Source: a virus (lineage: Duplodnaviria > Caudoviricetes). From it: a stretch of 56,403 bases of DNA. The notes under the pieces were generated by a model that was not told the origin of the DNA, searched no databases, and saw nothing but the letters and a program-made list of their open reading frames with translations. Made by a program: the position numbers and the translations under genes. The stretch covers positions 1 to 56,403 of the IMG/VR virus record IMGVR_UViG_3300048584_000026. One strand, given 5' to 3'. Below, piece by piece: positions 842-54,883 of this stretch; position 1 is the stretch's first letter; the number at the start of each line of letters is the position of its first letter.

Positions 842-3012
842 TCCTTCTTATATACCTTGCCTTCGTACCCGGCTGCACCCAGAGGCATTGTGCGTAGGAA
901 CTCGAACTGCTCTTGAATAGCCTTTGTCATGCAATGGCGCAATCCGGGGAGACCGTGAACTTCGTCGTCCTCGTCCTCCTCGGAAATGATTTCGTCGTGG
1001 ACGTGGCCGCAGATGTAGTAGCCTGCCGCGTGGGCCGCAAGCATCCCGAAGCCCAGAATATCGCGAGCGAGCGCCTGCACGAAGTTCTCGATGAACTTGC
1101 CGCCGTGGCTTTCGATTCGCTTCCATTGCTGGGTGATCTGGTCCTTGCCCATGTACGAGATATTGGTGCGCCAGTATGTCCCGTACTTGCCTTCTGCCTC
1201 GTACTTCTCGACACGAAGCTGGTAGTACCACATCGACCGGCCAGAGGGGAGGCCGACGCGCAGGAAGGGCTTGACGATCTGGAACTCCAGATGGCCCCAT
1301 TTGACGATCTTGCCGCCCGCCAGCATCGCGCGCTCGATGGTGTCCTCGATCTGGTACCAAGCGTTCTTGATCTCGCTGTAGGTCTCCCGGAACACTTGCA
1401 CGGCCCGGTTGGCCTCCTCACGGGTCATCTGGACGCCCATGCCCTCTGCATAGCCCCAGAGGCCCGTTTTCTCGCCGTCTCGTAGCTCCCCGCCGGACAG
1501 CCGGTACCCGGCACCCAGAACGGCTGGCTTGGCCCCTGACCGCTGAGCCTTGGTGACTTCCTCGTACGGCACTCCGTACATGTCGGTCGCAAAGTCCTTG
1601 TAGGCGCACATGCCGTTGCGAAACACGTTCAGGCCGCGCTCGCAGTCCGTTATCCAGAAGATCACGACCGACTCAATCGACGAGAGGTCGCAGACAACCA
1701 GCTTCTTATCCTGCGACGCCTGAATCGTGGATCGCACACAACCGGCCACGGCGTCCATTTGCTCGCCCGCGAAAACGCCCAGCGTCTCGTAGTCCCCGGT
1801 CTCGATCAGGTGATTGCAGAAGTCGAGCCGGTCGAAGTTGATGTGGTCCTCTGGTTCGAGCCACTTGGGCGTCCGGGGGAGGTTCTGCGGCTGGAGGGCG
1901 CGGCCCGCCCAGCGGTTCGTGCGTGACCCGCCTGCGAACTGGAAACAGTGTCTCAGGCGGTCATCATCCGCCAGACGGTCCATGACCGCCTCGTACTTGG
2001 TCGTAGATGTCTTGCTGGACGCCTGCCGCATCCGCATGACAACCCGGCAGTCCGGCATCAGGGAGCCTTCGCCTTGGACTTGGCCTAGTGCGTCGAGCCG
2101 CGCGTCAGGGTAGCACGGCACCAGCCCTTTGTTGCGCTCCTCTGGGGACGCGGCAAGGTAGCTCCGAACGCCTGCTTCTTCGGCGGCAAGCGTCTTGACG
2201 ATGTTGGCCTTCTGGAGGTTCCCGTATGGGTATCCTCGCTCCTGTAGCCACGGGAGAAGCTGCGCGCCGCTGTTCGAGTTCGCGAGGCCGGTGATACGGT
2301 TCTGCTCGGAAATGAGTTCCGTCTTGCGGCGGTCAGCGATAGCCAGAGCGTTTTCGACGAAGCGCCGGTTGATCGGCAAGCCCCGGTCGTTGATGATCTG
2401 ATCGAGTTCGTAGAGGTCCCACTGGAAATCCGGCACACCGAACCGGATCAGCTTGGACCAGACCTCTTTCTCGGAGTCGTTGTCCCGGATGCAGTACTTC
2501 TTGAAAATCTCCCAGTCCTCGGGATCGCTGTGCTGGTCACGCCAGACGAAAGGCTGATTCTTCGTCGGCTTGTTGGGCATACAGAACTCACGAATGAGCG
2601 CCCGGCCACGGGGGTCCTTCTTGTGCTTGAGTGACATCTGCTCGGCGATGTCGTCAAGGCCGCCCATGAAAGAGAACATGTAGGCGAGCGCCATGGAGCA
2701 ACGCCACGGCTTGTAGTCATGCTCGACCTCCAGCCCGATCTGCCGGGCGAGGACGCGCCAAGTGATCCACCGCTCGAACTGCGCGTTGAACGCGACTTTC
2801 AGGACCTCGGGGTCGCGCATGGCGTCCTTGAGGTCTCTGGGGATCGGCTGGCCTTCGGCAGGCACCCATAGCTGCGTTGCGTCGTCGTCCAGAGACCACG
2901 AACACATGAGAACCTTGGTCGAAGGGTTAGCCGAGTAGAGGTCGATCCCTGCGGTAAGGAGATCGACCTCGCTGGCTACTTCGAAGTCGTGGTGAAGTCT
3001 GGTCTGTGCCAT
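838..3012 (-). CDS. Family A DNA polymerase (phage type)
   Basis: Exonuclease motifs HDFE, AFNAQFE and YCIRD; QPQNLPR; motif A CDLSSIE; motif B RSGAKPAVLGAGY; ENFVQALARD; motif C HVHDEI. Confidence 0.95.
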   Translation of the reverse strand: MAQTRLHHDFEVASEVDLLTAGIDLYSANPSTKVLMCSWSLDDDATQLWVPAEGQPIPRDLKDAMRDPEVLKVAFNAQFERWITWRVLARQIGLEVEHDYKPWRCSMALAYMFSFMGGLDDIAEQMSLKHKKDPRGRALIREFCMPNKPTKNQPFVWRDQHSDPEDWEIFKKYCIRDNDSEKEVWSKLIRFGVPDFQWDLYELDQIINDRGLPINRRFVENALAIADRRKTELISEQNRITGLANSNSGAQLLPWLQERGYPYGNLQKANIVKTLAAEEAGVRSYLAASPEERNKGLVPCYPDARLDALGQVQGEGSLMPDCRVVMRMRQASSKTSTTKYEAVMDRLADDDRLRHCFQFAGGSRTNRWAGRALQPQNLPRTPKWLEPEDHINFDRLDFCNHLIETGDYETLGVFAGEQMDAVAGCVRSTIQASQDKKLVVCDLSSIESVVIFWITDCERGLNVFRNGMCAYKDFATDMYGVPYEEVTKAQRSGAKPAVLGAGYRLSGGELRDGEKTGLWGYAEGMGVQMTREEANRAVQVFRETYSEIKNAWYQIEDTIERAMLAGGKIVKWGHLEFQIVKPFLRVGLPSGRSMWYYQLRVEKYEAEGKYGTYWRTNISYMGKDQITQQWKRIESHGGKFIENFVQALARDILGFGMLAAHAAGYYICGHVHDEIISEEDEDDEVHGLPGLRHCMTKAIQEQFEFLRTMPLGAAGYEGKVYKKD

Positions 3013-3029
3013 GACAGGTCAAAGAAGGT

Positions 3030-3757: not shown

Positions 3758-5044
3758 TCACGAGTTACCGATGGCATCCGTTTCATCATCGAAAGCGGAT
3801 ACCGCTGACGCGATCCCTTCCCGTTTATCGGAACTGGGGATCATCGTCACTTTCCCCGGCGGCTGGTGAACGAAAGGCGCAATGCGCTTGTCGTTCGCCT
3901 TAAGACTGCCGCCGAGAGAAACCCTTAATAGCTGAACTGCCTGCGCAGGGGAAATGAATTTTTGCTCGTACATGTCGAGATCAGTAATACCGCGACCGCG
4001 AAGCATACGACGAGCAGCCGCTTCGTCTGTCCATTTACGGTTTCCGGCCCGGCCCATCCCGAGTTTTTGTCCCGGAACTTCGACATCCATTTCCAACTTC
4101 TTAAGCAAGTAGTCGTACATCTCCCGGAAATACTTCTCCAGAATCGGTCGCCACTCATAAATCTGGGCAAGACGCTCGACCGGGACTTCGCTGTACACTG
4201 GGAGACGTAGTTCGGAAACCATTTCCTGTTCTATCACGGCCACGGCTTGAGCCGGGGACATCTCGTTGTCGTCGAGATCGTCGAAACTGGCCGCCGCGAG
4301 CTTGACGTTTACCGCTGCCAGCGCCGGACAAGTGAACCGGGCAGGGCAGTACTCGCAGGCAATCGGATCGGGGTTGTACGGTGCCTCTGGGTCCCATGCC
4401 TTGTGAGCAGCCGCCCGGTAACGCTCTCCGAACTCAAGAAGCTGGTCGCGCGTGATGGTCCAGACATCGTAATTCTCTCGACGCGGTTGCACGATCTGGA
4501 TTTCGATCTCTTGGAAGTCGTACAGCCAGTCAAGCTCCTCGAACGCGCCAAGCGCGTAAGCCTGCCCCTGTTCGTTGTCCTCTGCATCCACCCAGACCTT
4601 GCCGTATTTGAGGTCCTTGACCCGCAGCTTGCCCCACTCGGCGCTGATGTGGTCCGAAGTCCCGAAGCTCGGAACGGGGGTGTACTTGGATAGATCGACC
4701 TTGACTTCGACGTAGTGCTTGCCCGGCATAGTCGAGACGAGCGAAACGTATTCTTCGACGTAGGAAATCATTTCCTCGGTGATCTCGATCTCGAACCCGT
4801 CCTTGGTGTGAACGGTGCCGAGATACCGATATGGGTTCCCGCTGGTCAGCCACTCCTCGGCAAGCCAGTGAGCGATAGAACCTTCGGCGGCGTAATAGCT
4901 GGGGTTATCGCCCGCCAGATGACCGGCGATCAGTGATCGCGGGCATCGCATCCAACGGTGTGCGCTGGACGGCCCAAAGATCGAGTGACCCGTGGCGTTC
5001 TTGTCCGCGAGCATCTGATCTGTGATAGGATGATGTTCGGACAT
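3758..5044 (-). CDS. Cas4-like PD-(D/E)XK exonuclease (DUF2800)
   Basis: HSIFGPSSAHRWMRCP, FGTSD, DLKYG, QGQAYALG and C-terminal CEYCPARFTC cysteine cluster. Confidence 0.85.
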   Translation of the reverse strand: MSEHHPITDQMLADKNATGHSIFGPSSAHRWMRCPRSLIAGHLAGDNPSYYAAEGSIAHWLAEEWLTSGNPYRYLGTVHTKDGFEIEITEEMISYVEEYVSLVSTMPGKHYVEVKVDLSKYTPVPSFGTSDHISAEWGKLRVKDLKYGKVWVDAEDNEQGQAYALGAFEELDWLYDFQEIEIQIVQPRRENYDVWTITRDQLLEFGERYRAAAHKAWDPEAPYNPDPIACEYCPARFTCPALAAVNVKLAAASFDDLDDNEMSPAQAVAVIEQEMVSELRLPVYSEVPVERLAQIYEWRPILEKYFREMYDYLLKKLEMDVEVPGQKLGMGRAGNRKWTDEAAARRMLRGRGITDLDMYEQKFISPAQAVQLLRVSLGGSLKANDKRIAPFVHQPPGKVTMIPSSDKREGIASAVSAFDDETDAIGNS

Positions 5045-5754: not shown

Positions 5755-6024
5755 ATGTCAGCAGAAAAATTTCCCGTTCCCGCTTGGGTAGAGCCGGAAC
5801 AGAGGGCCGAATTTGCCGTTCGTCTGGCGGCCTTCTACCACGATAAAAGCGGGAGCCTCGGGAAACTTTCCGTGGCTCTCGGCGGCTCGTCGTCAATGCT
5901 GCACATGCAGTTGAACACCACCGGGACCATCACCGTAAACACCTGTATCAAGATCGAGGAACTTCTGGGTCGCGAGACCTTCCCGCGCGAATTTTTCCGT
6001 CCTGACATTTTCGTTGCGGAGTAG
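5755..6024 (+). CDS. Cro-like HTH protein
   Basis: GSLGKLSVALGGSSS helix pattern and C-terminal REFFRPDIF typical of Cro/YdaS-like proteins; lies upstream of the primase. Confidence 0.6.
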   Translation: MSAEKFPVPAWVEPEQRAEFAVRLAAFYHDKSGSLGKLSVALGGSSSMLHMQLNTTGTITVNTCIKIEELLGRETFPREFFRPDIFVAE

Positions 6025-6032: not shown

Positions 6033-8504
6033 ATGGCCGCACGGCGCTACATGGAGGAGTTCGGCGTTAAGATCGCCGGGAACGGGTATGAGGTCATCCC
6101 GATCATTCCCGGCGAAAAACGCCCGGCGGGTAAGAACTGGCAGAAGCTCGCCGGTACGGTAGAGGGGGTCCACGACTACCTCGCCGACGGCAAAGGCGAT
6201 CACGGGATCGGCATTAAGGCCCGTCTATGCCCCAGCGTTGACATCGACGTTCTGGACGAGGCGGTAAACGCTGAAATCCAGCAGATCGTTCTGGATATAG
6301 TCGGTGATACGCCCCTAAAGAGAATTGGTTTCGCGCCGAAGGTCCTTTGGGTCTACCGGGCCGAGAAGGACTCGATGTTCCCGAAGGTCGATACCGGCAT
6401 GTGGGTTGATTCCCAAGGTCGGTCATCGAAGGTAGAAATCCTTGCCGACGGCCAGCAGTTTGTCGCGGCGCACATCCACCCAGACACAGGCAAGCCGTAC
6501 AAGTGGCTGACGGATTCACCGCTGACCCTAGGCCGATCTGATCTGCCGGTGCTTACGCACGAGCAGGCGAACCAGATCAAGGAGAAGGTCCTCCAGCTTT
6601 TCCTAGCGCACGGCTGGACCAAGAAATCCAAGAACGCGATCACGCGGCTGGTCAACCCTCTCGACGACGACGATCCGTTCAGCGCCTACAGGCCCAAGGT
6701 CCAGATCGGCGACCGGGAGCTTGAGCGCAAGCTGTTCCAGATCAAGGACAACACAGACCACGATGTCTGGGTCCAGATCGGCATGGCGCTGTACCACCAG
6801 TACGACGGAAGCGAGCAGGGTTTCGAACTCTGGGATCGTTGGTCCTCCAGCGCACACAATTACAGCGAGGAGGAGTGCCGCAAGCGTTGGCCCAGCTTCT
6901 CGAACAAGGACAATTCGCACACGCCGATGACGTGTCGGATCATCCTCAAGCTCGCCAAGACTTCCGAGAAAGAGGAGATCGAGGAGAAGTCCAAGGACTT
7001 CGCCGACCGGCTGGCTCTGGCGGGCAGCACGGACGAGCTTGTCGCGGTTTGCGACGAGATCAAGGTGACAGAGTTCCCGAACCACGTCCGGGAGCTTATC
7101 ACCGGCAAGGTCCGCGCCAACTGGAAGCGGCTCACCGGGGACAACCCACGTATCGGTTTCATCCGTGAGCTTATCCGGTTCGAAAACCGCGAAATCATTT
7201 CCGCTCCGCCGTGGGTGAAGCCGTGGGTCTACTGCTCGCAGACCGACGAACTGTTCAACATGGTGAACCGCACCCAGCTTGACCGGGCAGCCTTTAACGT
7301 GGCCCACGCCCGGTTCATGCTCACACCGCAAGAGCGGCTGGAGGGCAAAGCGGTCCCGGAGACCCAGCCTGTTGACGCCGTGGTGAACCTGTTCCAGATT
7401 CCGGTCGTCTACAATCGCATGTTCATGCCCGGTCAGCCGACCCTCTACTCCATGGACGGGATCGACTACGCGAACAGCTACACCGAAGAAGGTATCCCGG
7501 AGCTTCCGGGGAACCTGTCCCCGGTCGAAGAAGAAGCGATCCAGATATTCCTCGGCCACTTGGAGCATATCATCGCCAACGAGAACGACCGGCGTATCTT
7601 CCTCGATTTCCTGACCTACATCGTGAAGAACCCCGGACAGCGGATTAACTGGGCGATCCTGTTGCAGGGCGCAGAGGGCGACGGTAAGTCGTTCTTCTCC
7701 GTCGTTCTGGAGGCCGTTCTGGGTACCAACAACATCAACATGATTGCCGGGAACGCGCTGGAGGAAAAGTACAACCCATGGGCCGAGAACGCCCTCGTCT
7801 GCTTCATCGAAGATGTCCGGTTGCATGGCGCTAATCGCTTCGACGCGATCAACACGCTCAAGCCGATGATTACGAACAGCCGCGTCTCGATCCGGCGGAT
7901 GCAGACGAACATCTACACGGTCGTCAACACGATGAATTACATCCTGACCGCGAACGTGAAGGACGCTATGCCGGTCGGCGACGAGGACAGCCGTATCTTC
8001 CCGATCTTTACCCGGTTCCAGCGGTCGAGCGATCTGGACCGCTTCAAGACAGACAACCCGCACTATTACGACCGGCTGTTCGCGATCCTCCAGTTCGCCG
8101 GGGCGCTCCGCCAGTTCTTCTTGCTGCGGAAGATCAGCCCCGACTTCAATCCGAAGGCCCGTGCGCCCAAGTCGAGCTATCGCCGCGAGATGATCCTGCT
8201 GAACAAGTCGGAGGAGGTCACGGCTCTGGAGGACACGCTGGAGGTCAGCGATCAGCCGGACTACAGCGAGTTCCTGCTGGACAGCGGCAAGCTTGCCGAT
8301 CACTTCATGGGAACCGATGCTCTCGCCCCGCGTAGTAAGGCTCTGAGCCGTCTGTTGAGCCAGTATGGGTTCACGCTGCTGGGGCGCTTCAAGGTGAACG
8401 GAGAGAAGCGCCAGTATTGGTCAATGAAACCGTGGGCGTGGCCTGAGGACGACAACAAGCGCGGTGACGCGATTCGGGACTACCTCGATCCGGAGGGCTT
8501 GTGA
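6033..8504 (+). CDS. Bifunctional primase-polymerase with PriCT-2 and SF3-like helicase domains
   Basis: IPIIPGEKRP...GIGI...VDIDV prim-pol; WVQIGMALY...WDRWS PriCT-2; Walker A GAEGDGKS; ends DPEGL. Confidence 0.9.
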   Translation: MAARRYMEEFGVKIAGNGYEVIPIIPGEKRPAGKNWQKLAGTVEGVHDYLADGKGDHGIGIKARLCPSVDIDVLDEAVNAEIQQIVLDIVGDTPLKRIGFAPKVLWVYRAEKDSMFPKVDTGMWVDSQGRSSKVEILADGQQFVAAHIHPDTGKPYKWLTDSPLTLGRSDLPVLTHEQANQIKEKVLQLFLAHGWTKKSKNAITRLVNPLDDDDPFSAYRPKVQIGDRELERKLFQIKDNTDHDVWVQIGMALYHQYDGSEQGFELWDRWSSSAHNYSEEECRKRWPSFSNKDNSHTPMTCRIILKLAKTSEKEEIEEKSKDFADRLALAGSTDELVAVCDEIKVTEFPNHVRELITGKVRANWKRLTGDNPRIGFIRELIRFENREIISAPPWVKPWVYCSQTDELFNMVNRTQLDRAAFNVAHARFMLTPQERLEGKAVPETQPVDAVVNLFQIPVVYNRMFMPGQPTLYSMDGIDYANSYTEEGIPELPGNLSPVEEEAIQIFLGHLEHIIANENDRRIFLDFLTYIVKNPGQRINWAILLQGAEGDGKSFFSVVLEAVLGTNNINMIAGNALEEKYNPWAENALVCFIEDVRLHGANRFDAINTLKPMITNSRVSIRRMQTNIYTVVNTMNYILTANVKDAMPVGDEDSRIFPIFTRFQRSSDLDRFKTDNPHYYDRLFAILQFAGALRQFFLLRKISPDFNPKARAPKSSYRREMILLNKSEEVTALEDTLEVSDQPDYSEFLLDSGKLADHFMGTDALAPRSKALSRLLSQYGFTLLGRFKVNGEKRQYWSMKPWAWPEDDNKRGDAIRDYLDPEGL

Positions 8505-9181: not shown

Positions 9182-9309
9182 GCCGGGACCTCTAGCACGA
9201 TCTGGAGAATCTGGTAAGCCGTCCTGCGGTCCACCAGCTTCTCGTCTCGCCAGATCGGGTCGAAGGCATCGTGCGCCCGCTTCTTGGGGTTTACCCGTAC
9301 TCGCCGCAT
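9079..9309 (-). CDS. Hypothetical protein (DUF3268-like)
   Basis: KKRAHDAFDPIW...RRTAYQIL...SHM motif; ends CNGL. Confidence 0.55.
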   Translation of the reverse strand: MRRVRVNPKKRAHDAFDPIWRDEKLVDRRTAYQILQIVLEVPAWQSHMRHAPASVVKRVPAASRRLRRLLRGCNGL

Positions 9310-9779
9310 CCCGCGCCCTTGTCCGAACGGCCTGCGTGATAGCCGCCTGTAAACGTCTGCCACGGAACCCAACCCTTCGGGCAATGGAATCCCCAGTCCC
9401 GGACCTTCGGGCCGGTCATAAACAGACTGATCGACGGCTGGCCCCCGATAAGCTCCAGCCGGTGAGCGTCGGTCGCCTTGCGAGAGATCACATCGCCCGG
9501 TATCCGGTGTAGCAGGAAGTCCGGCGTGTGTTCGATGTATCCGCCCGCGATCACGAACGATGTGTTATCCCAAGGGTGGTCGTGCATCACGTCGTCGTCG
9601 GACCGCAGGGTCTCGTGGAGGTAGACGTTCAGGCTCTCGTTCCGGGGGATAATGTACCAGCGGCGCATGTAGTCCCCGCCAATCACAAAATCCGGCTCAC
9701 GCTGCATCACGTCAAGCGCCCAGAGGTACATGTCGCCGATATTGGCGTACTGATCGGCGAACCGCTTCATATCGAACAT
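9291..9779 (-). CDS. Cupin-like metal-binding protein
   Basis: YLH...MHDHPW...GGYIE...HRLEL...TGPKVRDWGF. Confidence 0.7.
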   Translation of the reverse strand: MFDMKRFADQYANIGDMYLWALDVMQREPDFVIGGDYMRRWYIIPRNESLNVYLHETLRSDDDVMHDHPWDNTSFVIAGGYIEHTPDFLLHRIPGDVISRKATDAHRLELIGGQPSISLFMTGPKVRDWGFHCPKGWVPWQTFTGGYHAGRSDKGAGCGEYG

Positions 9780-10258: not shown

Positions 10259-10711
10259 TCAGTTTCGCTCCTTGTTTTCGGCCATGGTTTGCATCAGGCG
10301 GGCCGCGTCGATGATGTGGTCCAGATCGAGATCGGCGAGCAGCAGGAACTCGCCCGAGATCGGGTTGCGGATGTACAGGGGCTTAGCGTTCGAGTTCCCT
10401 GTGATCTCCAGCAGCCGGAACCCATAGGCCGCCGCGTTCGATAGCACGACCGCAAGCGGCTCGATCTGGTCCATGCGAACCGGGAGAACGACACGGCCTG
10501 CGCGAATGTCAGCGTCCCCGACGACCTGTTGCTTTTCGAGGAAGGCGCTCAGATCGCGCCGAACCGCCTCGTCGTTCAGGTGCCGCAGGCGGACCTCGTA
10601 CACCGCCTCTTTGTTCAGGTACCGTTTCAGCCGCTCGAACGCCAAACCCATCAGGATCGAGGTCCCCGCGACAGCGGTGCCGAACGCAATGATTTCGGGA
10701 ATCGTTTCCAT
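10259..10711 (-). CDS. Hypothetical protein with N-terminal TM helix
   Basis: Hydrophobic IIAFGTAVAGTSILMGLAF; AAGGA RBS. Confidence 0.65.
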   Translation of the reverse strand: METIPEIIAFGTAVAGTSILMGLAFERLKRYLNKEAVYEVRLRHLNDEAVRRDLSAFLEKQQVVGDADIRAGRVVLPVRMDQIEPLAVVLSNAAAYGFRLLEITGNSNAKPLYIRNPISGEFLLLADLDLDHIIDAARLMQTMAENKERN

Positions 10712-11101: not shown

Positions 11102-11929
11102 TCAGGCTGCCTTCGGTCGGTTGATGTAGGTGAGGGGTTCCCCGTTCTTGTCGTAGGTATGCTCGACCACGGTTGCCTTGCAACGAGTCTTGCTTCCCCT
11201 GACATAGTGACGAGACCCTTCTTCTCCCTGCCGCAGGAAACCTAGCAGCCGGGGCGACGACTTGGTGGCGATCTTGCAGCCGTTCTCGTCGGTGCAGAGC
11301 GTCCAGTGCGACATGATATGCGGGAACTCGCTGATAAGTCGGCTCTGGGTGTGGATCAGAGTCAATTCGAAATCGCGGCGCTCCTTGATCGTGCCAACAT
11401 GGCGAGCAGCGGCCACTCGGGCGCGTTCCTTCTCGTTGCGCTCGATGATCTGGTTCACGACCTCGATCTGCCGGTCAGTCGGCTCCTTGGCTTCCACGAC
11501 GATACGATCCCGGATCGACTGGAGTACTTCGACCTCACCGTGCGCCAGTTCCGCGTCGATCCGGGCGATGAAACCCTCGTTCCCGGAAATGATTTCCGCC
11601 CGCTGGGCGTCACGGCGCTCCTGCTCGATCCGAGCGGCCTCGGCCCGAGCAGCGGCCTTCTTCGCGGTCCGCTTCTCAGCCGCCGCGTCCAGCCGGGCGT
11701 TCTGCTCCGGGGTGTAGAGCTTATGGGTCTCGTTGACCGGATCAATACCGGAGCCGCCGCAGCGATAGCACTTCCAGCCGGTGTTGCTGCCAGCCGGTCC
11801 CCAAGCATCCGATCCGCCTGCGCCGCCGCAACGAACGCACTTCCGCGAGCAGATGTGCAGCGGCTTACCGTTCTTGTCGGCGTGGGTGGCCCGGAGAGCC
11901 TGACCAGATCGGTTGTAGAGGATGACCAT
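11102..11929 (-). CDS. Zn-finger (CxxCxGxG repeat) protein
   Basis: CVRCGGAGG...CYRCGGSG, coiled coil, beta-rich C-terminus; first gene after a TTGACA promoter. Confidence 0.7.
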   Translation of the reverse strand: MVILYNRSGQALRATHADKNGKPLHICSRKCVRCGGAGGSDAWGPAGSNTGWKCYRCGGSGIDPVNETHKLYTPEQNARLDAAAEKRTAKKAAARAEAARIEQERRDAQRAEIISGNEGFIARIDAELAHGEVEVLQSIRDRIVVEAKEPTDRQIEVVNQIIERNEKERARVAAARHVGTIKERRDFELTLIHTQSRLISEFPHIMSHWTLCTDENGCKIATKSSPRLLGFLRQGEEGSRHYVRGSKTRCKATVVEHTYDKNGEPLTYINRPKAA

Positions 11930-12014: not shown

Positions 12015-12346
12015 GGGGCAAGATCAGGGGCAAGATCAGGGGCAAGATCGGATCATGCCCCTCGTTTTCGGCCACTTTGGGGGGAAAATGAATCAGAAAT
12101 CCCTTCCCGCGAGGGGCAAGATCGCCCGTGTTTTGATCTTGCCCCTGATCTTGCCCCTGATCTTGCCCCTGAGAAAATACTGAATTTCCTTACTTATTTC
12201 GAGATACCCCCCTAAAGGGGCAAGATAATCTTAAAAACGAAGCTCTGTATACGAGGAAAAACTTGCCGTGTTAAGTGACGAACACATAACTTTGGTGAAA
12301 TTTTTTCCCACAGCCTGAATAAGGGAAAATCGGTCGATCTTGCCCC
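12015..12346. repeat. Iteron-like GGGGCAAGATC array (about 10 copies, both orientations)
   Basis: Forward at 12015, 12027, 12039, 12113 and 12217 (1 mismatch); reverse at 12051 (1 mismatch), 12135, 12147, 12159 and 12336; adjacent AT-rich tract. Confidence 0.9.
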
Positions 12347-12583
12347 TCGGATGCCTCGTTCATAAAAGTCGGTCAGACTCATTAACAGAAATTCGTTCGA
12401 CCGGGTGCGGCCCTCCAGCACCCGAAAACCGGCATCGCCAAGCTTCGTTTGCACAGATCAGACAGGAACTTGGACCAACTTCGGAAATGATTTCGCGATC
12501 CGGAAATGCCTAGGAGCAGATAACCGGAAATCATTTCCAATAGCGAGGTCATACGCGAAATCGGGAATGTCAGAAGAAAAGCG

Positions 12584-12595: not shown

Positions 12596-12782
12596 CACCC
12601 CCGCTGGCCCGCTCTGCCTATAGTACCTAAAGGGTCTATCGCTGATTCATTATGCCCTAGGCCCCGTTCTGGCGGCCTGTGAGTAATGATTCAGGGCGGC
12701 CCGCTAGGCCCCTAGCTGAATCATTTTCGTGCAATCCTGAGGCCCTGCACAAGGCCCAGCCGCTCGCCCTTGTTGCGGGCAT

Positions 12783-12816: not shown

Positions 12817-12838
12817 GTTGCGTCCGATTGTCCGGACC

Positions 12839-43880: not shown

Positions 43881-44195
43881 TTAGTCCTCAAGCTCGCGCA
43901 GTAGTTTCTCGAACGCCTTTACAGCCTTTTTGCCTCCCATGAAAGAAGCAGACGCGACATGCTGGTCTGCAATCATCTGGAAAGCCATCTCTCGGCGCTT
44001 GACGGTTCGAAGAAGTTCTTCCTCGTTGGCAAGCTTGCCGAGAGCGTATCGGTGTGCGTCCGGGTGGCCGTTTGCCTTTAGGTGGCTGACGGTTTCGCGG
44101 ATGTTGCGATAATAGTCTGCAACGATGTCATCAGGGGTCCCGGCGGAAGGCCGTTTGCCTCCAGCAGACTTGCCACGACCCCCGCGAGCTTTCCC
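43881..44195 (-). CDS. -1 frameshift extension of the tail assembly chaperone (gpT-like)
   Basis: GGGAAAG slippery site at 44189-44195; the -1 frame is open to TAA at 43881 (…NGHPDAHRYALGK…LLRELED). Confidence 0.8.
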   Translation of the reverse strand, partial: GKARGGRGKSAGGKRPSAGTPDDIVADYYRNIRETVSHLKANGHPDAHRYALGKLANEEELLRTVKRREMAFQMIADQHVASASFMGGKKAVKAFEKLLRELED

Positions 44196-44560
44196 AACTC
44201 GATCCCGCCATCCTCGACCGAGAGCAGCGCGATTGCCTTGAGAGCTTCGATCTGCTTCACGAATGACAGTCGCCGGAACTTCTCAACATCGTCCGGCGAT
44301 TCTGCTTCGGCGCAACGGGAAATGATTTCCACGACCATAGACGGGAAGTCCTTGGCAAGCTCCATGACCAGATCGGCCACGCGGTCCTTCGGGAGGACCG
44401 GGCGCTTACCAGAGTACTTGGAGACGACCTTCTTCATGTCCTCCAGATAGTGCATCGTGAGGAACGTCACGTCCTCCGAGTTCATGCCCCGGACGGTGAA
44501 GAAGCCGCCCTTGGAGCCTACCTCGATCCGGGTAGTCTCGATCTCAAAATTAACTGCCAT
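44078..44560 (-). CDS. Tail assembly chaperone (gpG-like)
   Basis: Between major tail and tape measure genes; AGGAGTCGA RBS. Confidence 0.8.
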   Translation of the reverse strand: MAVNFEIETTRIEVGSKGGFFTVRGMNSEDVTFLTMHYLEDMKKVVSKYSGKRPVLPKDRVADLVMELAKDFPSMVVEIISRCAEAESPDDVEKFRRLSFVKQIEALKAIALLSVEDGGIELGKLAGVVASLLEANGLPPGPLMTSLQTIIATSAKPSAT

Positions 44561-45437: not shown

Positions 45438-45986
45438 TCAATTCTCCTCAACAAAGGGCATAGCAAGGTCAGTCACATTCCCGACTGAGATGGGCATGTA
45501 GAAGTATGCGGTGTCTGATACAGCATCTTTGCCCGGTCGCACAATAGGAATTTGATACCGGACATCAGCGACAAGTCCCCCGAGTCGCCACTCATTCGGG
45601 TAGAGGCCCCCACGGCCTCCGTTTTTCTTCTCCGTGGTGATGCGGGCGAGCCGCATCTGGGTCCACGCCAGAAGCGAGTACGCCGGGTCGAGCGGGTGCT
45701 TCTGATCGTCGTTCGCGAAGCCTTGGATAAGTATGGTCCAGTCCTCGCCCTGTATCAGGCCCACGCCCGCGCCGTTAGGGTCAAGCTGGCGAGGGGCCTC
45801 CAGAATAGCGAGAAACGGGTTCTGCACTTCGTCACCGAACTCAAGCCGACCGCGAAAGACGCTGGAACTCAGATCGTACGGGCAGACAACCCCCTGCATC
45901 TCGTCGGGTAGATCGGTCCAGTCTGGCGTGATCCCCTCAAGATGGGAGGTCAACGCTTTCAGAATTGCGAGCTTCTTGGAAATCAT
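45438..45986 (-). CDS. Tail terminator-like protein
   Basis: VFRGRLEFG; position before the major tail gene. Confidence 0.7.
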   Translation of the reverse strand: MISKKLAILKALTSHLEGITPDWTDLPDEMQGVVCPYDLSSSVFRGRLEFGDEVQNPFLAILEAPRQLDPNGAGVGLIQGEDWTILIQGFANDDQKHPLDPAYSLLAWTQMRLARITTEKKNGGRGGLYPNEWRLGGLVADVRYQIPIVRPGKDAVSDTAYFYMPISVGNVTDLAMPFVEEN

Positions 45987-45995
45987 TTCACAACC

Positions 45996-49196: not shown

Positions 49197-49244
49197 GGTG
49201 TGTGTCTCCTTGTGAAATGGTTTCCATGGAGAGCAGGATCAGGC

Positions 49245-49730
49245 TTACGCCTTCGCCTGCTCCAGCTTACGGCCCGTCGCTGCCGCCTGCGCGCCCATGA
49301 TGCGAGCGACATTGGCCGAGACAGCATCGCCATCACCGCCGCCGTCCTTGCCGTCCGGACCGACGTTCGGATGCTTGTCCGTGTCCATGGCCTGCTCGAA
49401 CTGCGACTTGCCCTTGGCCTTGTCGTCAGCGTCGTCGCCTTCCATGTACTCGTCGTCGTCCTCGTCGTCCTTCTTCTTCTTGGACTTCTTCTCGCCGCCC
49501 TTGGCCGCTTCGCCCGAGTCGTCGCCTTCCGGCTCGTCCTTCTTGGCTTCGGCCTTCGGCGAGACCTTGAGCATCGCCACGGCGTCGTCAACCGACATGT
49601 CGGTGTTGTAGGCCAGATGCTCGGCGAGACCTTCACGGCCTGCTGCTTCTTCGTGGGTCATAATGCCCTTGATACGCGCCTTCGTTTCGTTCGCAACGGC
49701 GGCCCGATCCTCGGAACTGATTTCTGCCAT
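49245..49730 (-). CDS. Nested in-frame scaffold protein (lambda Nu3-like)
   Basis: Internal GGAGGA RBS before MAEISSEDR; RIKGIM..EEAAGRE.LA motif. Confidence 0.65.
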   Translation of the reverse strand: MAEISSEDRAAVANETKARIKGIMTHEEAAGREGLAEHLAYNTDMSVDDAVAMLKVSPKAEAKKDEPEGDDSGEAAKGGEKKSKKKKDDEDDDEYMEGDDADDKAKGKSQFEQAMDTDKHPNVGPDGKDGGGDGDAVSANVARIMGAQAAATGRKLEQAKA

Positions 49731-50651
49731 GGTTACTTCCTCCTGAGAGTCCTCTACGGTGGGTTCATCTGACTTGCCAAGCTCAGCTACAAACGACGCC
49801 ACCGCCGTCGTTGGAGATTCCGCCGCGTCGATCAGGCCGAGCGACAACGCTTCCGACGGCCTCATTACACGAGCCTCGGTACCCTTGACAACACTTTCTT
49901 CGATGCCTCGAAATTCGGCCACGGCGCGATGAAACTCAGTCGCGCGCTCGTCTACCATGCTTTGCAGATACGCCCGGTCCTCCTCGGACATCGGCTCGTA
50001 CATGTTGCCGCTCGTCTTGAACTTGCCGTTCTTGATGAAATCGGTCTCGATTCCCCAGTCGGCGAGCATCTTGGCGATGTTCATGTGAAGGATGTAGACG
50101 CCGATGCTGCCGACCGATCCGGACGGTGCGCAGACGATCCGGTTGCACGGCGCTGCCAGCCAGAAGCCGCCCGAGGCGGACAGGCTGTTGACGAGCGCCA
50201 TGGTCGGCTTCTCCAGCCCCGCGATCTCGCGCGCAAGCTCGTCACACCCAGCCGCCTCGCCGCCCGGCGAATCGTGATCGAACACGATCAGGGTGACATC
50301 GGGGTCCTTGTCAGCGAGGTTCATCTGCTTCCGGATGAAATCATATCCGGTCACGAAGCCCCAGCAATAGTTGAAGCGGTTAATCAGGATGCCGTGGACA
50401 GGGATCACCGCTACGCCGTCCTGATAGATGAAGGGCTTGGTCGGGCCGTCCGGGCCATCCTCATAGCCCCACGCCCCGGCAACCTCGCCCCGAACCTCGT
50501 TCCAAGCGGCCCCCGGGTCCGTCACCTGTTCGGCTTCGCTGAGAAGCCCCATCAGCATTGATTCGGCGTGACGGTCGCTGATAAGGCAATCGCCTGCCGA
50601 CATGCGGCTAAGGGTTTTCGCCATCAGACCGCGCTTACGCAGCTTCGTCAT
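49245..50651 (-). CDS. S49 capsid maturation protease
   Basis: VAVIPVHG, DSPGG, SASGGFWLA, GSIGV. Confidence 0.9.
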   Translation of the reverse strand: MTKLRKRGLMAKTLSRMSAGDCLISDRHAESMLMGLLSEAEQVTDPGAAWNEVRGEVAGAWGYEDGPDGPTKPFIYQDGVAVIPVHGILINRFNYCWGFVTGYDFIRKQMNLADKDPDVTLIVFDHDSPGGEAAGCDELAREIAGLEKPTMALVNSLSASGGFWLAAPCNRIVCAPSGSVGSIGVYILHMNIAKMLADWGIETDFIKNGKFKTSGNMYEPMSEEDRAYLQSMVDERATEFHRAVAEFRGIEESVVKGTEARVMRPSEALSLGLIDAAESPTTAVASFVAELGKSDEPTVEDSQEEVTMAEISSEDRAAVANETKARIKGIMTHEEAAGREGLAEHLAYNTDMSVDDAVAMLKVSPKAEAKKDEPEGDDSGEAAKGGEKKSKKKKDDEDDDEYMEGDDADDKAKGKSQFEQAMDTDKHPNVGPDGKDGGGDGDAVSANVARIMGAQAAATGRKLEQAKA

Positions 50652-52423
50652 TGTGTGCCTCCATTGCCGCCCAGTACCATGTCGCCGAAGTGCCGCGCAA
50701 GCTCCGAGGGGAGGCGTACCGTGACGCTATCCCCATCGTCGTCCATTTCGGTCTCGTCCTGCTGCTCCTGAGCCTCCTGAGCGTCCTCCTGAGCCTGATC
50801 GCCCCCTTGGCCGGTGTTGCCCTTGTTGGTCCCCATGTCGAACACCAGAGAGCGTTCTGACATGACCCCGGCCTCCAGCGCCTTCTGCTCGAAAATCTCG
50901 CGCCAGTCCTCGCCCAGACGCCCGATCTCGATCTCGTAGGTGGACAGGCCCGCCTTGATCCGGAGGATCGCGGCCTGCGTTTCCTTGAGTTCGTCGATCT
51001 GCCCGGTGCCGGTGCCGATCCACGAGCAACGGCTGAACGCCTCGCGCATCAGGGGCCGGTAGTAGTCGTCACGGGTGAAGCCCGGCGGAAGCGGGACCTC
51101 CCCCTGCGAAATGAACTCCTCAAGCACGTTGCCGTAGATCGCGTTCGCCAGACGATCCGCGACCATCTTCTTGCGCGCGCGCATCGACCGGCGAGTGTTC
51201 TCCGTAGAGAGCTTCGCGGTCGCGTAGGACATCCGCGAATAGTCGCGGCTGAACTCGGCATAGTCCAGACCGAGAGCGGCGGCTGTGTGCCGAAGCAGCG
51301 AAGCCTCGAAATCAGTTCCGACTCCGCCGGGCGTACCGAGCGTTTTCATGTTCAGCTTGGTGCCGGGGTACAGGTGCGGGATCATCGCGCCGTCGAGCGC
51401 GATGTTCTCTGCCCCGGACAGGTACTTCTGCAAGCCCGCCAGATAGGCCCCGATGGCATCGTTCAAGGATTCCGCGTTCGAGGCGTCTCCGCCCATGGCG
51501 ACAATCATTTCCGCCGTCGGCATCTCCGATTCGATGGCAGCGCAGTAGGTCGCATTGATGACCGCGTTCTGGAGAACCACGTCCTGCAAGTGCTTGGTCA
51601 TCCGCATACGCTTGAGGGCTGCGACCATATCGGCCACGCCGCGATGCTGATCCGGGAAAAGCTGCTCGATGATATGGACGACTTGCGGACGACCCCACGG
51701 CTTGTAGCGAGGGACGTAGGCGAAATCGAGCATGTCGTATGCGCCGGGCCAGAAGGCGTTCGGGTGGTTCCGCTGGAAGTAGTATCCAACGGGCTTGCCC
51801 CGTGCATCGACCTTGACCCCGCGCCGCATATCGCGCGTGTCGCTTTGCCAGTCCGGGTTACGGAGACGGCTGGGATCGACCGACTGGAAGCATGTCTTGA
51901 TCGGTCGCCCGGCGGAGCGATCCCACTCCGAGGTCTCGATGATCTCCCCAGTCATCACGAACCCGGCTACGCCGAGCCTGATCTTGCCGGTGAACGTGTT
52001 CATGCCTGCCGCGTCAAGGTAGCAGGCTTCGCTCTCGGCGATCAGGTGGAACCGATCTTCGATCACTCGCTGGGCCGCGTCCGCCCACTCTTTCGTCGCG
52101 CCGGGGATCATCTTCCACGCGATCTTGGCGTTCAGCCGGTACTGCGCGCCAACAATCGAATCCATGTGCGTCTGGATCGCGCCACGGGCATAGCCATCGT
52201 TGATGACCATATCCTTCGCCCGCGCGTCAGCAGGCTCCTTGACCGAGTTGATAGCCCGGTCAGGCGGGACCGCAGCCACGTCCCAGTTGTGGGTCTCCCG
52301 GCTGGTACGTTCTGCGCCCTCCAGTCCGCCGCCGAGCGCCTGCTCGCTGCTACGGTAAATCTGGATGTCGGTCCGGCCACGGGTTGCTTTGCCGAAGTCG
52401 AAAATCTGCTGTTCAGCGTTCAT
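50648..52423 (-). CDS. Portal protein (lambda gpB family)
   Basis: GVKVDARGKPVGYY, QHRGV, SRDYSRMSYA, IDELKE. Confidence 0.92.
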   Translation of the reverse strand: MNAEQQIFDFGKATRGRTDIQIYRSSEQALGGGLEGAERTSRETHNWDVAAVPPDRAINSVKEPADARAKDMVINDGYARGAIQTHMDSIVGAQYRLNAKIAWKMIPGATKEWADAAQRVIEDRFHLIAESEACYLDAAGMNTFTGKIRLGVAGFVMTGEIIETSEWDRSAGRPIKTCFQSVDPSRLRNPDWQSDTRDMRRGVKVDARGKPVGYYFQRNHPNAFWPGAYDMLDFAYVPRYKPWGRPQVVHIIEQLFPDQHRGVADMVAALKRMRMTKHLQDVVLQNAVINATYCAAIESEMPTAEMIVAMGGDASNAESLNDAIGAYLAGLQKYLSGAENIALDGAMIPHLYPGTKLNMKTLGTPGGVGTDFEASLLRHTAAALGLDYAEFSRDYSRMSYATAKLSTENTRRSMRARKKMVADRLANAIYGNVLEEFISQGEVPLPPGFTRDDYYRPLMREAFSRCSWIGTGTGQIDELKETQAAILRIKAGLSTYEIEIGRLGEDWREIFEQKALEAGVMSERSLVFDMGTNKGNTGQGGDQAQEDAQEAQEQQDETEMDDDGDSVTVRLPSELARHFGDMVLGGNGGTQ

Positions 52424-52674: not shown

Positions 52675-52684
52675 GGGCCAGTCC

Positions 52685-54883
52685 TCAAGCAATCTTGGAA
52701 GCGATTTCGCTCAGGTCATAACGGGTTTTCTTGCGCTCTGCAAATGCTTCGCTGCCCTGCCGGATGATAAACGGGTTGTCGGGGTCGTCCGGATCGGCCC
52801 AGACCGGAACTCGGTTCCAAAAACTAGGCCGCTCGCAGCGGATGTACTTGGTCATACATAGACCAATGGCGTAATACAGCAAGTCCCATGCTTCGTTGTT
52901 CCTGACGCCGGGTGCTTTGACCCAGCCCTTTTCTTTCAGGACCTCGGAGCAGAACTCCTTGAACAGCCAAGCCGGGTTCCACTTGGGGATTCTTACCATG
53001 CCTTTATTAGGCACTTCGGAGGAAAGTCTGTTGTTCGCTTCGTTCTTCAACTGATTCGAGTTCAACTGCCAGACCGGAACGTCACCGCGCGCCGTGGCAA
53101 GGTTCTTCCTGTCACTGGCGTCAGGGAAAGTCTCCCGGACCTGAGGCGCGTTGGGCGTACCCGTACCCTTGAGCAGCAGGAAACGATTTCCGAGTCCAAC
53201 AGCCTTGAGGGTGCGCCAGAACGCATAAGCGTTCGCAGTCACGCCAGCCTTACCCCCGGAGTCGCAACCCGCGATCCGGATAGCCATACGCGTATCACGA
53301 CCCTGCATAGGGTAGCTGCGCTTCACGACTTGATCTGTCAGGAGGTCCCAGTCCTCTAGGTAGGTCCCCGGCTTGACCCACTGGACATCGCCATCCTCGT
53401 CCTTGCGCTTCGACTTGCGAATGTCGAACCGCTCCACCAGCACGAGGTCATAAGGCTCGCCGGGAACAACGCCCCAGACCTGTACGACGAACATGTTCTT
53501 CTGCACGTCGATAGTAGCCAGAAGAAAAGCGATCTCGGAAATGATTTCAATCTCGCCGGTCTCAGGGTTGCGTCCGAAGTCCTCCGCCCGAGAGATCAGG
53601 TCCTCTGGGGTGCGTTCGGCTTCGGCAGCCTTCGGCTTATAGGGCCGCCCCAAGTCGGTGTTGTAGAACTTGCGCAGCGGCTCCTCGTTCAGTGTGGAGT
53701 CAAACTCCTCCTCCGCTGTCAGGTATGCTGCGACCAGTTTCGGCCAGTTGGTGAAGGCCGCAGAGCATCCCTCCAGCCAATAGCTCGCATACTTCGACCG
53801 GCGGGGATTGCCGATGACGCGGCCTGCCTCGATCCGGCAGCCGTCAGGCAGCCAGAGACCGTTCTGGGCGAGCGTGAACCGCTCGTCAGGGTGAATCTTG
53901 CCCTCGCAAACAGGACACTTGAGGCGGACGGTCTCGGCGGCATCAAGGCCGTTCGCAAACGGGTCCCACTCCAGCAGTTCAAACCGAGGCTCGAAATACT
54001 CGCCACATCTGCCGCAAGGAATGTACCAGCGCCGACGGTCGCCGCGATTGTACAGGGCCAGAATCCCCGTGGTCGGGGGTGCCTCGTGCGCTGTCTTGGG
54101 GACGTAACGAAAGTCCGTAATCGCGCGGCTGGGGGAGGACTCGCAGAGGGTCATCGCGAAAGAGCCGTACGAGGTCGTGCGCTTGGTCGCCAAGTCGAAA
54201 GGGTCGCCTTCCCCGTCGATGTCATCCTCCATGCGGTCGCGGTCAGTCAGCGCGATCCGGGGGATAGGCTTACCGGCGAGTTCGGCTTTCGTCGGCCACG
54301 CGAGGCCAAGGATCGTTCCGTTCTTGTAGTGCTTGTCGAACTTGTTGTCCGCGTCACGGCTCTCCAGAAGCTCTTTGCCCACAAGCTCAGAGTCCCGGTG
54401 CAAGCGGTCGATACGCCGGTTTGAGAAGTCGCGGGCGTTGCCCTGCGTCGGGGAGAAGATGGTCATGTCCGACGGCTCTGCGCGAACCGAGTAGCCTGCC
54501 CAGTTCAGGATCAACTCGGTTTTGCCGCACTGGGCCGGACCCACAAAGATAACCGCATCAAGCTCCGGGTCCACCAGCTTGTCCAACGGCTCCCGAAGGT
54601 ACGGCGCATACGAAAAGCGCCAAGGCCCGACGTAGCCCGGCGCGTTGTTCAGGTAGCGTTCTTGCTCCGTCCATTCAGACGGCTTACGGTGATCGGGATC
54701 GAGCCATATCTGCTCGACGGTCCGGCAGACTACATCACCGAGATCGCTATAGCCCGTTATACTGGTCCTCGGTTTCCGGGGAGCCAAGAAGGCCAGTTCC
54801 TCGCTCGTCAACCGGCTCGTGTTCACGAACGAGGAGAGGGCCGTCAGGTCCATGTCCTGCGTCGTACTCGGGGCCGTCGCCAT
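52685..54883 (-). CDS. Terminase large subunit (lambda gpA family)
   Basis: GPAQCGKTE, GDRRRWYIPC, TIDVQ, CDSGG, NEAWDLLYYA. Confidence 0.95.
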   Translation of the reverse strand: MATAPSTTQDMDLTALSSFVNTSRLTSEELAFLAPRKPRTSITGYSDLGDVVCRTVEQIWLDPDHRKPSEWTEQERYLNNAPGYVGPWRFSYAPYLREPLDKLVDPELDAVIFVGPAQCGKTELILNWAGYSVRAEPSDMTIFSPTQGNARDFSNRRIDRLHRDSELVGKELLESRDADNKFDKHYKNGTILGLAWPTKAELAGKPIPRIALTDRDRMEDDIDGEGDPFDLATKRTTSYGSFAMTLCESSPSRAITDFRYVPKTAHEAPPTTGILALYNRGDRRRWYIPCGRCGEYFEPRFELLEWDPFANGLDAAETVRLKCPVCEGKIHPDERFTLAQNGLWLPDGCRIEAGRVIGNPRRSKYASYWLEGCSAAFTNWPKLVAAYLTAEEEFDSTLNEEPLRKFYNTDLGRPYKPKAAEAERTPEDLISRAEDFGRNPETGEIEIISEIAFLLATIDVQKNMFVVQVWGVVPGEPYDLVLVERFDIRKSKRKDEDGDVQWVKPGTYLEDWDLLTDQVVKRSYPMQGRDTRMAIRIAGCDSGGKAGVTANAYAFWRTLKAVGLGNRFLLLKGTGTPNAPQVRETFPDASDRKNLATARGDVPVWQLNSNQLKNEANNRLSSEVPNKGMVRIPKWNPAWLFKEFCSEVLKEKGWVKAPGVRNNEAWDLLYYAIGLCMTKYIRCERPSFWNRVPVWADPDDPDNPFIIRQGSEAFAERKKTRYDLSEIASKIA

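Follow-up and report, generated by a model that had tools for sequence, protein, structure and literature searches.

The window and its palindrome

The stretch of DNA analysed here, referred to as the window, is the 56,403-bp IMG/VR virus record IMGVR_UViG_3300048584_000026, for which a completeness of 97% was estimated and a G+C content of 62% was measured, the initial annotation of this DNA having assumed about 65%. The window possesses a siphophage gene set comprising DNA polymerase A, a DUF2800 nuclease, an Enc34-type single-stranded DNA-binding protein, a Prim-Pol/D5-type primase-helicase, a lambda-type large terminase (TerL) and portal and a DUF1441 small terminase, as well as a GapR-like gene (27150-27482, plus strand, starting at either 27150 or 27240) which lies directly upstream of the gene for a ParB/KorB-like protein of 413 amino acids (27516-28757, plus strand). 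Dispersed over this genome is a short palindrome, GAAATSATTTC, the copies of which are collectively called the lattice and almost certainly constitute a real, selected protein-binding system, with the ParB/KorB-like protein (hereafter ParB) as candidate reader. The closest cultured relatives of the window phage are the Erythrobacter phages vB_EliS-R22L (R22L) and R16L, which share its gene order at protein identities of 30-70%, and the Casjensviridae phages AH2 and SS2019XI are among the remoter ones. Most of the early window genes received no family name when about 35 window proteins were scanned against PHROG, Pfam and NCBIfam, and the in-gene counts of exact window sites given below refer to 63 crudely called genes.

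The exact palindrome occurs 19 times in the window as compared to 0.02 expected copies (100 dinucleotide shuffles, largest value 1), which corresponds to a density of about 340 per Mb, and eight of these copies represent the full 13-mer GGAAATSATTTCC; both counts, and the positions of the sites, agree with those reported initially. Copies with one mismatch had been underestimated at six and amount to 12, so that sites with at most one mismatch total 31, 0.63 being expected and three being the shuffle maximum. De novo word counting ranked the palindrome far above every other word of the window in over-representation. Outside of c-G...C-g the sequences flanking the sites are unrelated to each other, and no extension beyond the core, as would be typical for repetitive extragenic palindromes (REP) or miniature inverted-repeat transposable elements (MITE), was found in the window.

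The proposal that selection acts on the DNA rather than on the encoded peptides was corroborated, as 11 exact sites reside within genes, a number opposed by a mean of 0.47 in protein-keeping synonymous-codon shuffles (largest value 3 in 1000) and by 0.011 when the codon order of the called genes was shuffled. The exact motif encodes nine of the nine E[IM]IS tetrapeptides present in the called window proteins and does so with A/T-ending codons, although the genome is G+C-rich. The sites had further been described as being read in different frames, which holds true insofar as all three frames occur; however, nine of the 11 share the E-I/M-I-S frame and each of the other frames is used only once.

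Position, conservation and spacing of the sites

Comparison with related genomes, designated by G numbers, revealed that the window sites are under strong purifying selection. In the relative G408, 18 of the 19 exact sites have an orthologous counterpart in which none of the ten fixed bases is changed, C and G being freely exchanged at the centre, and their 400-bp surroundings are 71-88% identical to the window; the chance of 18 intact sites among 19 was calculated to be about 6e-17 (simple binomial, 80% identity). Retention amounts to 16 of 19 in G409, to 11 exact sites and one variant in the 72%-complete G418 and to six sites in the more distant G410. When genomes carrying other classes of the motif (described below) are compared with the window, merely 0-3 of 13-15 mapped in-gene sites coincide, hence over the long term the sites turn over while their number is kept.

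Starting from the left end of the window, the first exact site, GAAATGATTTC, lies at 983-993 in the DNA polymerase A gene (838-3012, minus strand), where it is read as E-I-I-S, and it occupies the same place in G408, G418, G409 and G410. It is followed by a full 13-mer at 4764-4774 in the DUF2800/PD-(D/E)XK exonuclease gene, kept in four of four relatives, and by the site at 7191-7201 in the primase-helicase gene (6033-8504), which was kept in three relatives and shows the C/G flip of its centre in G408. The open reading frame (ORF) 11102-11929 (minus strand) harbours a full 13-mer at 11586-11596, and the large non-coding region holds two sites separated by 43 bp, i.e., 12484-12494 and the full 13-mer 12527-12537. 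Further sites are located at 14613-14623 (codons 4-7 of ORF 14387-14632 on the minus strand, as read by eye; kept in G408), at 18930-18940 within the divergent intergenic region 18511-19085, which is the sole site not kept in G408, and at 19851-19861 within the small ORF 19744-19935, where the third frame yields K-S-F. As proposed initially, two sites abut start codons: the full 13-mer at 22911-22921 fills a 15-nt intergenic gap and ends 2 nt before the start of 22923-23540, whereas the site at 45979-45989 overlaps the start codon of 45438-45986 (minus strand), and both are kept in four of four relatives. The acyl-carrier-protein gene 23566-23814 contains a site at 23584-23594 (codons 7-10), ORF 23946-25004 a full 13-mer at 24810-24820, and the site at 26046-26056 lies between called genes, overlapping small uncalled ORFs. 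The full 13-mer at 27088-27098, located 9 nt past the stop of 26546-27079, is the first site upstream of gapR-parB. The remaining exact sites locate to the tail (tip attachment J-like) gene 34345-36678 (35669-35679), to the tail gene 37118-37936 (full 13-mer, 37286-37296, second frame, N-D-F), to ORF 44078-44560 (full 13-mer, 44319-44329, with a family site at the matching place in G410, G414 and G426) and to the large terminase gene 52685-54883 (53538-53548).

The one-mismatch sites are similarly scattered. Three of them have a family site at the matching place in other genomes, namely 2309-2319 (G410 and G423), 49714-49724 in the head protease gene (G410, R22L and G414) and 51308-51318 in the portal gene, the latter being the deepest-conserved place with a family site in five of 11 compared genomes. 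A GAAAC half-site characterizes the copies at 4215-4225 and, in the terminase gene, at 53180-53190. The others are found at 10686-10696, at 28866-28876 about 110 nt downstream of parB, in intergenic gaps at 32522-32532 and 49214-49224, in the tape-measure gene at 40664-40674, at 50337-50347 and in the helicase-like gene 55615-56316 at 56025-56035.

The spacing of the 31 sites is more even than that of random points, with a coefficient of variation of 0.63 versus 0.95 (P=0.003) and a largest gap of 4.3 kb versus 7.3 kb (P=0.007). Evenness was likewise identified in 10 of 11 other genomes compared (P <=0.016), G425 being the one without it, and strict sites give the same picture. The idea of a genome-wide system, as put forward in the initial annotation, was borne out. 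In the annotated R22L genome, 11 of 28 sites are located within or at the edge of intergenic gaps as compared to 6.6% expected, an excess which was read as placement where the coding cost is lowest.

A family of motifs in related phages

The lattice is shared by the clade. Overall, 21 related genomes or fragments carry 13-71 sites of the form GAA-N-T-N-A-N-TTC (0.30-1.1 per kb), with 15-71 copies in the Erythrobacter-type siphophage genomes, whereby the half-site drifts between lineages and its fourth base differs (A, G, C or mixed). The A-type (GAAAT) is found in the window, G408, G409, G410, G418 and the fragment G407, the G-type (GAAGT) in R22L, G413, G414, G411, G415, G417, G403, G420-G422, G425 and G426, and the C-type (GAACT-W-AGTTC) in G419, which carries 24 sites. 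R22L is devoid of the window motif and possesses its own palindrome, GAAGT-W-ACTTC, in equal numbers; other G-type genomes hold 41 (G420), 71 (G421, 1.1 per kb) and 59 sites (G422). Mixed types were identified in G423 (G, C and A), G424 (G and A) and G412. The 25 sites of G412 comprise 16 A/G hybrids, nine A/A and no G/G sites, and its hybrids, in which a GAAAT half is joined to a GAAGT half so that pairing is broken, occur eight times in either orientation, intermixed within one transcription direction and with no positional pattern.

These hybrids bear on the question of whether the palindrome acts as duplex at all. A function via its structure or via one strand, i.e., as RNA or single-stranded DNA hairpin serving priming or processing, as cruciform or as Chi-like recombination signal, might be considered given that a spacing of 1-3 kb resembles the lengths of lagging-strand fragments and that local RNA folding allows the motif to form a hairpin of five pairs with a 3-nt loop. 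That hairpin is weak, however, and a T-tract follows it only by coincidence at 27088; the window-type primase was undetected in G420-G422, the genomes with the densest lattices; and the fact that G412 is dominated by hybrids which are unpaired and present in both orientations argues against hairpin, cruciform, RNA and strand-specific (Chi, primase) signals alike, so that this explanation is regarded as highly improbable. The hybrids rather argue for a reader which, as a dimer, would contact each duplex half-site separately and tolerate one weaker half.

Retrieval of relatives via the large terminase yielded 80 loci, 32 of which carry three or more copies of GAARTNAYTTC and 41 none. Among the fragments recovered, L265 harbours GGAAAY-N-RTTTCC hybrids, and L252, a terminase relative from IMG/VR (14.7 kb, a contig without parB), contains seven dispersed copies of GAAAAGC-N-GCTTTTC. 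The complete relatives G427-G432 and G436 are lattice-free (0-2 sites), and no lattice sites were found in the first 50 kb of AH2 and of SS2019XI. Retrieval of viral contigs with a 15-mer gave at least 116 stretches, mostly single chance matches, and among the matches listed solely L098, L119 and L088 were new enriched loci, L098 being a divergent A-type relative on a 16-kb contig without parB.

Which gene accompanies the lattice

All window proteins were profiled by tblastn over 15 lattice-bearing and seven lattice-free genomes, each at least 89% complete. ParB was detected in 14 of the 15 lattice-bearing relatives and, by profile, also in the 15th (G419, E 3e-45). No other regulator-type gene occurs in every one of the 16 complete genomes that bear the lattice; the other window proteins common to all of them are replication and structural proteins only. 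For comparison, GapR was detected in 10 of the 15, the Cro-like protein and the methyltransferase each in 11 and the primase in 12. Among genomes retrieved via TerL, which were not selected for ParB, all eight lattice-bearing ones of at least 92% completeness encode ParB. The seven lattice-free genomes that were fetched and scanned whole include three with ParB, and the four without it have 0-1 sites. The co-occurrence of motif and parB in relatives, which the initial annotation had named as a check, favours ParB, as none of the four ParB-less relatives possesses a lattice; over all 16 complete lattice genomes the association has a Fisher P of 0.004, uncorrected for kinship. These data suggest that ParB is necessary but not sufficient for the lattice. 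A second scan of viral contigs with a ParB profile added two loci only.

The surroundings of parB point in the same direction. In 15 of 20 genomes, parB or gapR-parB is preceded by a site at a distance of at most 641 bp, about 26% being expected from site density, and in the gapR-less G421, G422 and G425 the distance to parB is 15-22 bp. In the window, the full 13-mer at 27088 had been described as lying 10 nt before a gapR-parB promoter. This does not hold true: the TTGACA in question forms the 5' arm of a terminator-like hairpin between the site and gapR (27112-27140, plus strand), which consists of 13 pairs with a T-rich tail behind them, and the stretch 26800-27600 yielded no sigma-70-like promoter.

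Another phage DNA-binding protein might read the lattice instead, either the Cro-like protein (5755-6024), which the initial annotation had offered as alternative, or a small unrecognised protein, with ParB binding elsewhere, e.g., to the repeats at 12015-12346 described below. A small helix-turn-helix (HTH) dimer would fit the GGAA-N5-TTCC layout, the position of the Cro-like gene upstream of the primase is conserved, and many early genes are without family assignment; moreover, the loose covariation of ParB helix and motif (see below) and the existence of lattice-less ParB phages leave room for another reader. The Cro-like protein itself is nevertheless a weak candidate. It was undetected in four of the 15 complete lattice genomes, including the three with the densest lattices, its putative recognition helix differs among phages with identical motif, it has no Pfam, PHROG or NCBIfam match, and the region upstream of its own gene is without lattice site. 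Taken together with the restriction of the remaining shared proteins to replication and structure, a reader of this kind is considered unlikely, though it is to be taken seriously.

GapR was rejected as reader since its Pfam family is absent from G419-G422, G425 and three lattice-bearing fragments, including the syntenic spot. A host protein of sphingomonad or alphaproteobacterial origin may alternatively have been recruited by the phages, in which case the motif variants would reflect their hosts. In line with this, the lattice-bearing phages are relatives of Erythrobacter phages, lattice-free relatives include Burkholderia and Pseudomonas phages, and phages whose ParBs are only about 30-40% identical have the outer GAA...TTC in common. 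Opposed to it is the finding that the window motif, which hence is no general feature of bacteria, occurs 0-13 times per genome in 401 sampled Pseudomonadota, a sample not aimed at the true host, with one exception: the 5-Mb bacterial genome G016 holds 57 copies of GGAAATSATTTCC on many contigs, and the two copies examined are embedded in a longer conserved repeat element, unlike those of the window. In addition, the phage-encoded GapR is ruled out as a reader common to all lattices, and the three phages with mixed or hybrid specificities form one clade in a quick tree of the phage ParBs (support of 97 in the Shimodaira-Hasegawa-like approximate likelihood ratio test, SH-aLRT), rendering a host reader improbable.

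A role of the motif as target of DNA modification was considered likewise, carried out either by the methyltransferase-like protein encoded at 110-841 or by a base dioxygenase activated by ParB. Both enzyme labels occur in the window, the latter assigned by PHROGs, and ParB homologues that activate phage thymine dioxygenases are described in PMC13229309. Still, according to its abstract these activators are without obvious DNA-binding domain, whereas the window ParB possesses an HTH; no Tet_JBP match was obtained in the window, though control genomes also gave none; the 'dioxygenase' was undetected in six and the methyltransferase in four of the 15 lattice genomes; and modification alone leaves the selection for even spacing unexplained. 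As the 'dioxygenase' moreover folds as a small cupin and not as TET/JBP, this explanation is very unlikely.

The ParB/KorB-like protein

ParB (27516-28757) comprises an N-terminal ParB-type nucleotide-binding fold, an HTH_ParB domain (PF17762, 24.3 bits versus a cut-off of 22.6) and, behind the HTH, a small putative dimerisation domain (residues about 237-298), a 65-residue Ala/Glu/Lys helix and a disordered Pro/Ala/Lys tail. Box I (P37-G38-F39-N40-x-R42) is invariant among 19 homologues, as are G86, R89 and A92 of box II, the sequence of which (G-E-H-R-F-D-A-A) aligns with box II of Spo0J, and N129 of box III. The survey PMC12704722 shows that ParB folds may bind cytidine triphosphate (CTP), ATP or GTP. 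The AlphaFold2 (AF2) model has a mean predicted local distance difference test (pLDDT) score of 78.8, and its nearest Foldseek neighbour is KorB of RK2 (8QA9/8QA8, E 1.4e-8), followed by ParB, Spo0J and Noc; KorB-CTPgammaS, ParB-CDP and Noc chains match with E values of 1e-8 to 1e-5, and DNA-binding-domain/DNA complexes of both KorB and Noc are among the matches. A homodimer model scored 0.42, the best control reaching 0.18, and places residues 237-298 and the N-domain at the interface, an outcome which likeness to solved ParB dimers may explain; the mark applied is reached by 20 of 30 solved homodimers and one of 23 solved monomers. The homodimer runs agree in at least 89% of contacts with a partner pLDDT of at least 77.

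The recognition helix was compared between motif classes. In A-type phages, the helix G-R-T-T-R-H-I-D-N-L keeps the canonical ParB pattern of Spo0J, while G-type phages mostly possess V-T-P/S-R-Y-L-D-D-V, the differences being R/V, T/P, N/D and L/V. Via Spo0J, the differing positions align with K171, R173, N178 and T179 of Caulobacter ParB, which are listed as parS contacts or specificity positions in PMC7383237. The rule that an R in the ParB helix equals a lattice was dropped, as G421 and G422 have K at this position and the lattice-free G432 has R. At the C-terminus (28400-28757), the tail of the window subgroup ends in a conserved D-D-G-M-G-G-L tip resembling a short motif by which a partner docks. 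G420 and G421 (L288 and L289), whose lattices are among the densest, carry a second, very divergent ParB-like gene.

The initial annotation had proposed a parS or genome-organising system read by ParB, of which the reader stands as best candidate and the classical parS or partition role is unlikely. The homology of the 27516-28757 protein to ParB, together with the dispersed repressor sites known from temperate phages, would suit a centromere of an extrachromosomal prophage or an immunity network of the stoperator type. However, searches of the 97%-complete genome found no ParA-type ATPase (PF13614 and PF01656, 14 of 14 control genomes being positive) and no tyrosine integrase (PF00589), hence neither a classical parS nor a stoperator system is suggested, and the palindromic sites show no orientation bias, unlike stoperators. 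Inspection of the ParB N-terminus by eye identified no ParA-binding motif of the L-G-[RK]-G-L type, as this is defined in PMC12704722. A ParB-based scan of 185,579 species genomes revealed no close prophage relative of the window phage and returned four distant loci of only 35-37% identity, none of them titled alphaproteobacterium. Taken together, a centromere or immunity function is hardly to be expected.

Other repeats and genes of the window

Next to the lattice, the window possesses further repeats. Between 12015 and 12346 nine copies of GGGGCAAGAT are found (0.10 expected), arranged as three direct copies, one, three inverted copies and two more, which flank an AT-rich stretch and adjoin the lattice sites 12484 and 12527, where the initial annotation had placed a predicted cos. 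By its arrangement this array looks like origin iterons or like a terminase- or centromere-type array. Repeats based on CCCCCTCTGTAG (three exact and a variant) lie at 18800-19010 between divergent early genes; related words are over-represented in R22L and L008 (five copies each), and the CCCCCTCTGTAG repeats probably represent a separate conserved regulatory site. A region of about 1.1 kb (12600-13700) is without confident ORF and rich in GGCCAC/GTGGCC-type words, and CGTGGCCG occurs 43 times in the window, counting both strands, as compared to six expected.

Among the genes, the acyl carrier protein gene 23566-23814 (PF00550, E 4.5e-13) is located in the early operon amidst unnamed genes and may belong to a small pathway of biosynthesis or modification. 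The gene 9291-9779 (minus strand) is labelled 'cysteine dioxygenase' by PHROGs; the top matches of its small-cupin fold are B. subtilis YubC/cysteine dioxygenase and other cupins, its His and Asp are invariant, and homologues exist in AH2, SS2019XI and nine of the 15 lattice phages. That it encodes a thymine dioxygenase was rejected on account of this fold and of the missing Tet_JBP match, for which the controls were negative as well. Directly after parB, the gene 28761-29234 weakly resembles the DprA/SLOG type, its PF02481 match (E 8e-5) staying below the cut-off.

Proposed function of the lattice

On balance, the sites are probably dispersed docking sites on double-stranded DNA for a two-fold symmetric phage protein, most likely the phage's own ParB, which would use them as a loading lattice in the manner of KorB and Noc; this assignment, derived from sequence comparison, is held with moderate confidence. 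The suggested mechanism assumes that ParB dimers dock on each palindrome through their HTH domains, whereupon the docked protein would close into a nucleotide-dependent clamp and slide off, as do KorB, Noc and ParB. By analogy with KorB, the clamp may slide for a kilobase or so, and sites every 1-4 kb or thereabouts would then keep the whole phage chromosome loaded, to which the Lys-rich tail of ParB could add non-specific DNA binding. Coverage of the chromosome by sites at this distance would explain why even spacing was selected and not proximity to promoters. With no ParA and no sign of lysogeny, the output is likely not plasmid-type partition, and chromosome-wide organisation, silencing or protection of the replicating phage DNA is the likely result.

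Several findings weigh against this assignment. Six of the 16 complete lattice genomes had been found through ParB itself, and small reader proteins which are too diverged for tblastn could have escaped detection. Seven ParB-bearing relatives have no or a weak lattice, i.e., AH2 and SS2019XI (50 kb of each examined), G406 (seven sites), G416 (16.7 kb examined), G427, G430 and G432, and in a quick ParB tree four of these seven ParBs group apart from the lattice ParBs. Quick trees of both TerL and ParB are star-like with unresolved backbones, so that independent gains cannot be counted. With regard to the protein, the Pfam model of the ParB N-terminus gave no match at E <=1e-3, and sequence matches in the PDB are marginal (E 0.03-0.3), even if they represent genuine Spo0J and H. 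pylori ParB chains which align over the HTH, with box II aligned to Spo0J. The R of box III found in most homologues is E in the window subgroup, where an R follows one position further on. One and the same G-type motif occurs with the helices ...T-P-R-Y-L-D-D..., ...S-E-R-H-V-G-D... and ...T-N-K-H-V-R-D..., G420-G422 share this motif but differ in their ParB helix, and the helix of the C-type G419 is almost identical to common G-type helices; as helices vary under one motif, helix-motif covariation is loose and comprises few independent changes. Finally, the GGGGCAAGAT cluster would suit a ParB-type centromere equally well and might thus be an alternative ParB target.

A further-reaching idea, which is doubtful and offered as speculation, holds that a lytic phage coats its whole replicating chromosome with a ParA-independent ParB clamp, evenly spaced sites with the fourth base as 'barcode' allowing it to mark its own DNA against that of the host and of co-infecting relatives. 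If true, such a self-marking nucleoprotein coat could protect the DNA against nucleases or defence systems of the host, attract its condensin or silence genes along the whole chromosome, and would give the ParB fold a new role and phage genomes a new kind of organisation.

Irrespective of its reader, dozens of phage genomes keep a short palindrome at 20-70 evenly spaced places, through coding sequence, and for a virus this marks a genome-wide system of DNA and protein with unusual clarity. The A, G, C and mixed variants provide a natural series for following the joint change in specificity of a protein and about 30 scattered sites, and the cultured relative Erythrobacter phage R22L makes experiments feasible. 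Should ParB be the reader, a testable function would be at hand for the widespread ParA-less phage ParBs.

Comparison with known systems

Dispersed binding sites are known from several phages. Mycobacteriophage stoperators are asymmetric, oriented with transcription and recognised by a temperate phage's immunity repressor, and systems of this type possess tens of 13-17-bp sites scattered in the phage genome, many of them in genes or short gaps. Dispersed repressor sites likewise occur in phiC31, P1 and N15 (SopB in N15). Unlike stoperators, the sites of the window clade are palindromic and orientation-free, as exemplified by the G412 hybrids (eight in each direction), and evenly spaced, and no lysogeny gene was detected. 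With ParABS the window system shares the ParB fold, the HTH and a palindromic site, but it has no ParA, and its sites are spread over 56 kb instead of being clustered near parB or the origin. The ParB-dependent phage thymine dioxygenases resemble it in that a ParA-less phage ParB serves a role other than partition; however, according to PMC13229309 those ParBs have no DNA-binding domain and reside beside a TET/JBP enzyme, neither of which applies to the window ParB.

On the Bacillus subtilis chromosome, the half-site of the Noc-binding site (NBS) probably resembles the window hexamer, in the opposite direction relative to the dyad. Noc structures are among the fold matches of the window ParB, and Noc is described in PMC8429893 as a ParB paralogue without ParA role which uses many palindromic 16-bp sites for nucleation and depends on CTP for its spreading. 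It differs in being cellular and in tethering DNA to the membrane via an N-terminal helix, none being evident by eye in the window ParB.

The closest parallel is the KorB-OB network of the plasmid RK2, which carries about a dozen dispersed OB sites. KorB/RK2 structures are the top structural neighbours of the window ParB, at a sequence identity of about 18-20%, and the defining trait of many dispersed copies of one short palindrome is present in the window. KorB, according to PMC11790492, is a CTP clamp of the ParB family which uses a short palindromic operator for loading, slides and acts at a distance; its OB core is given there as a 13-bp palindrome with central G/C, which is the layout of GGAAAT-S-ATTTCC, and equals the inner core A-G-C-N-G-C-T of the L252 palindrome. 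In contrast to KorB/RK2, the present case concerns a phage and not a plasmid, the 31 sites of the window (up to 71 in relatives) are evenly spaced, mostly lie in genes and differ in sequence, no ParA (IncC) partner was found and no KorA-like clamp-locking partner was identified. Operators of the KorB-OB network are moreover placed by promoters, whereas most window sites are in genes and no promoter was found beside the site at 27088. The literature matches listed did not contain these motifs in a phage context, and a search on phage ParB and dispersed palindromes found no dispersed ParB sites in phages. What is rated as new here is a dispersed lattice of the KorB/Noc type on an apparently lytic phage, without ParA and with natural specificity variants; provided that ParB is the reader, the principle of KorB and Noc, i.e., many loading sites, sliding and action at a distance, would extend to apparently lytic phages.

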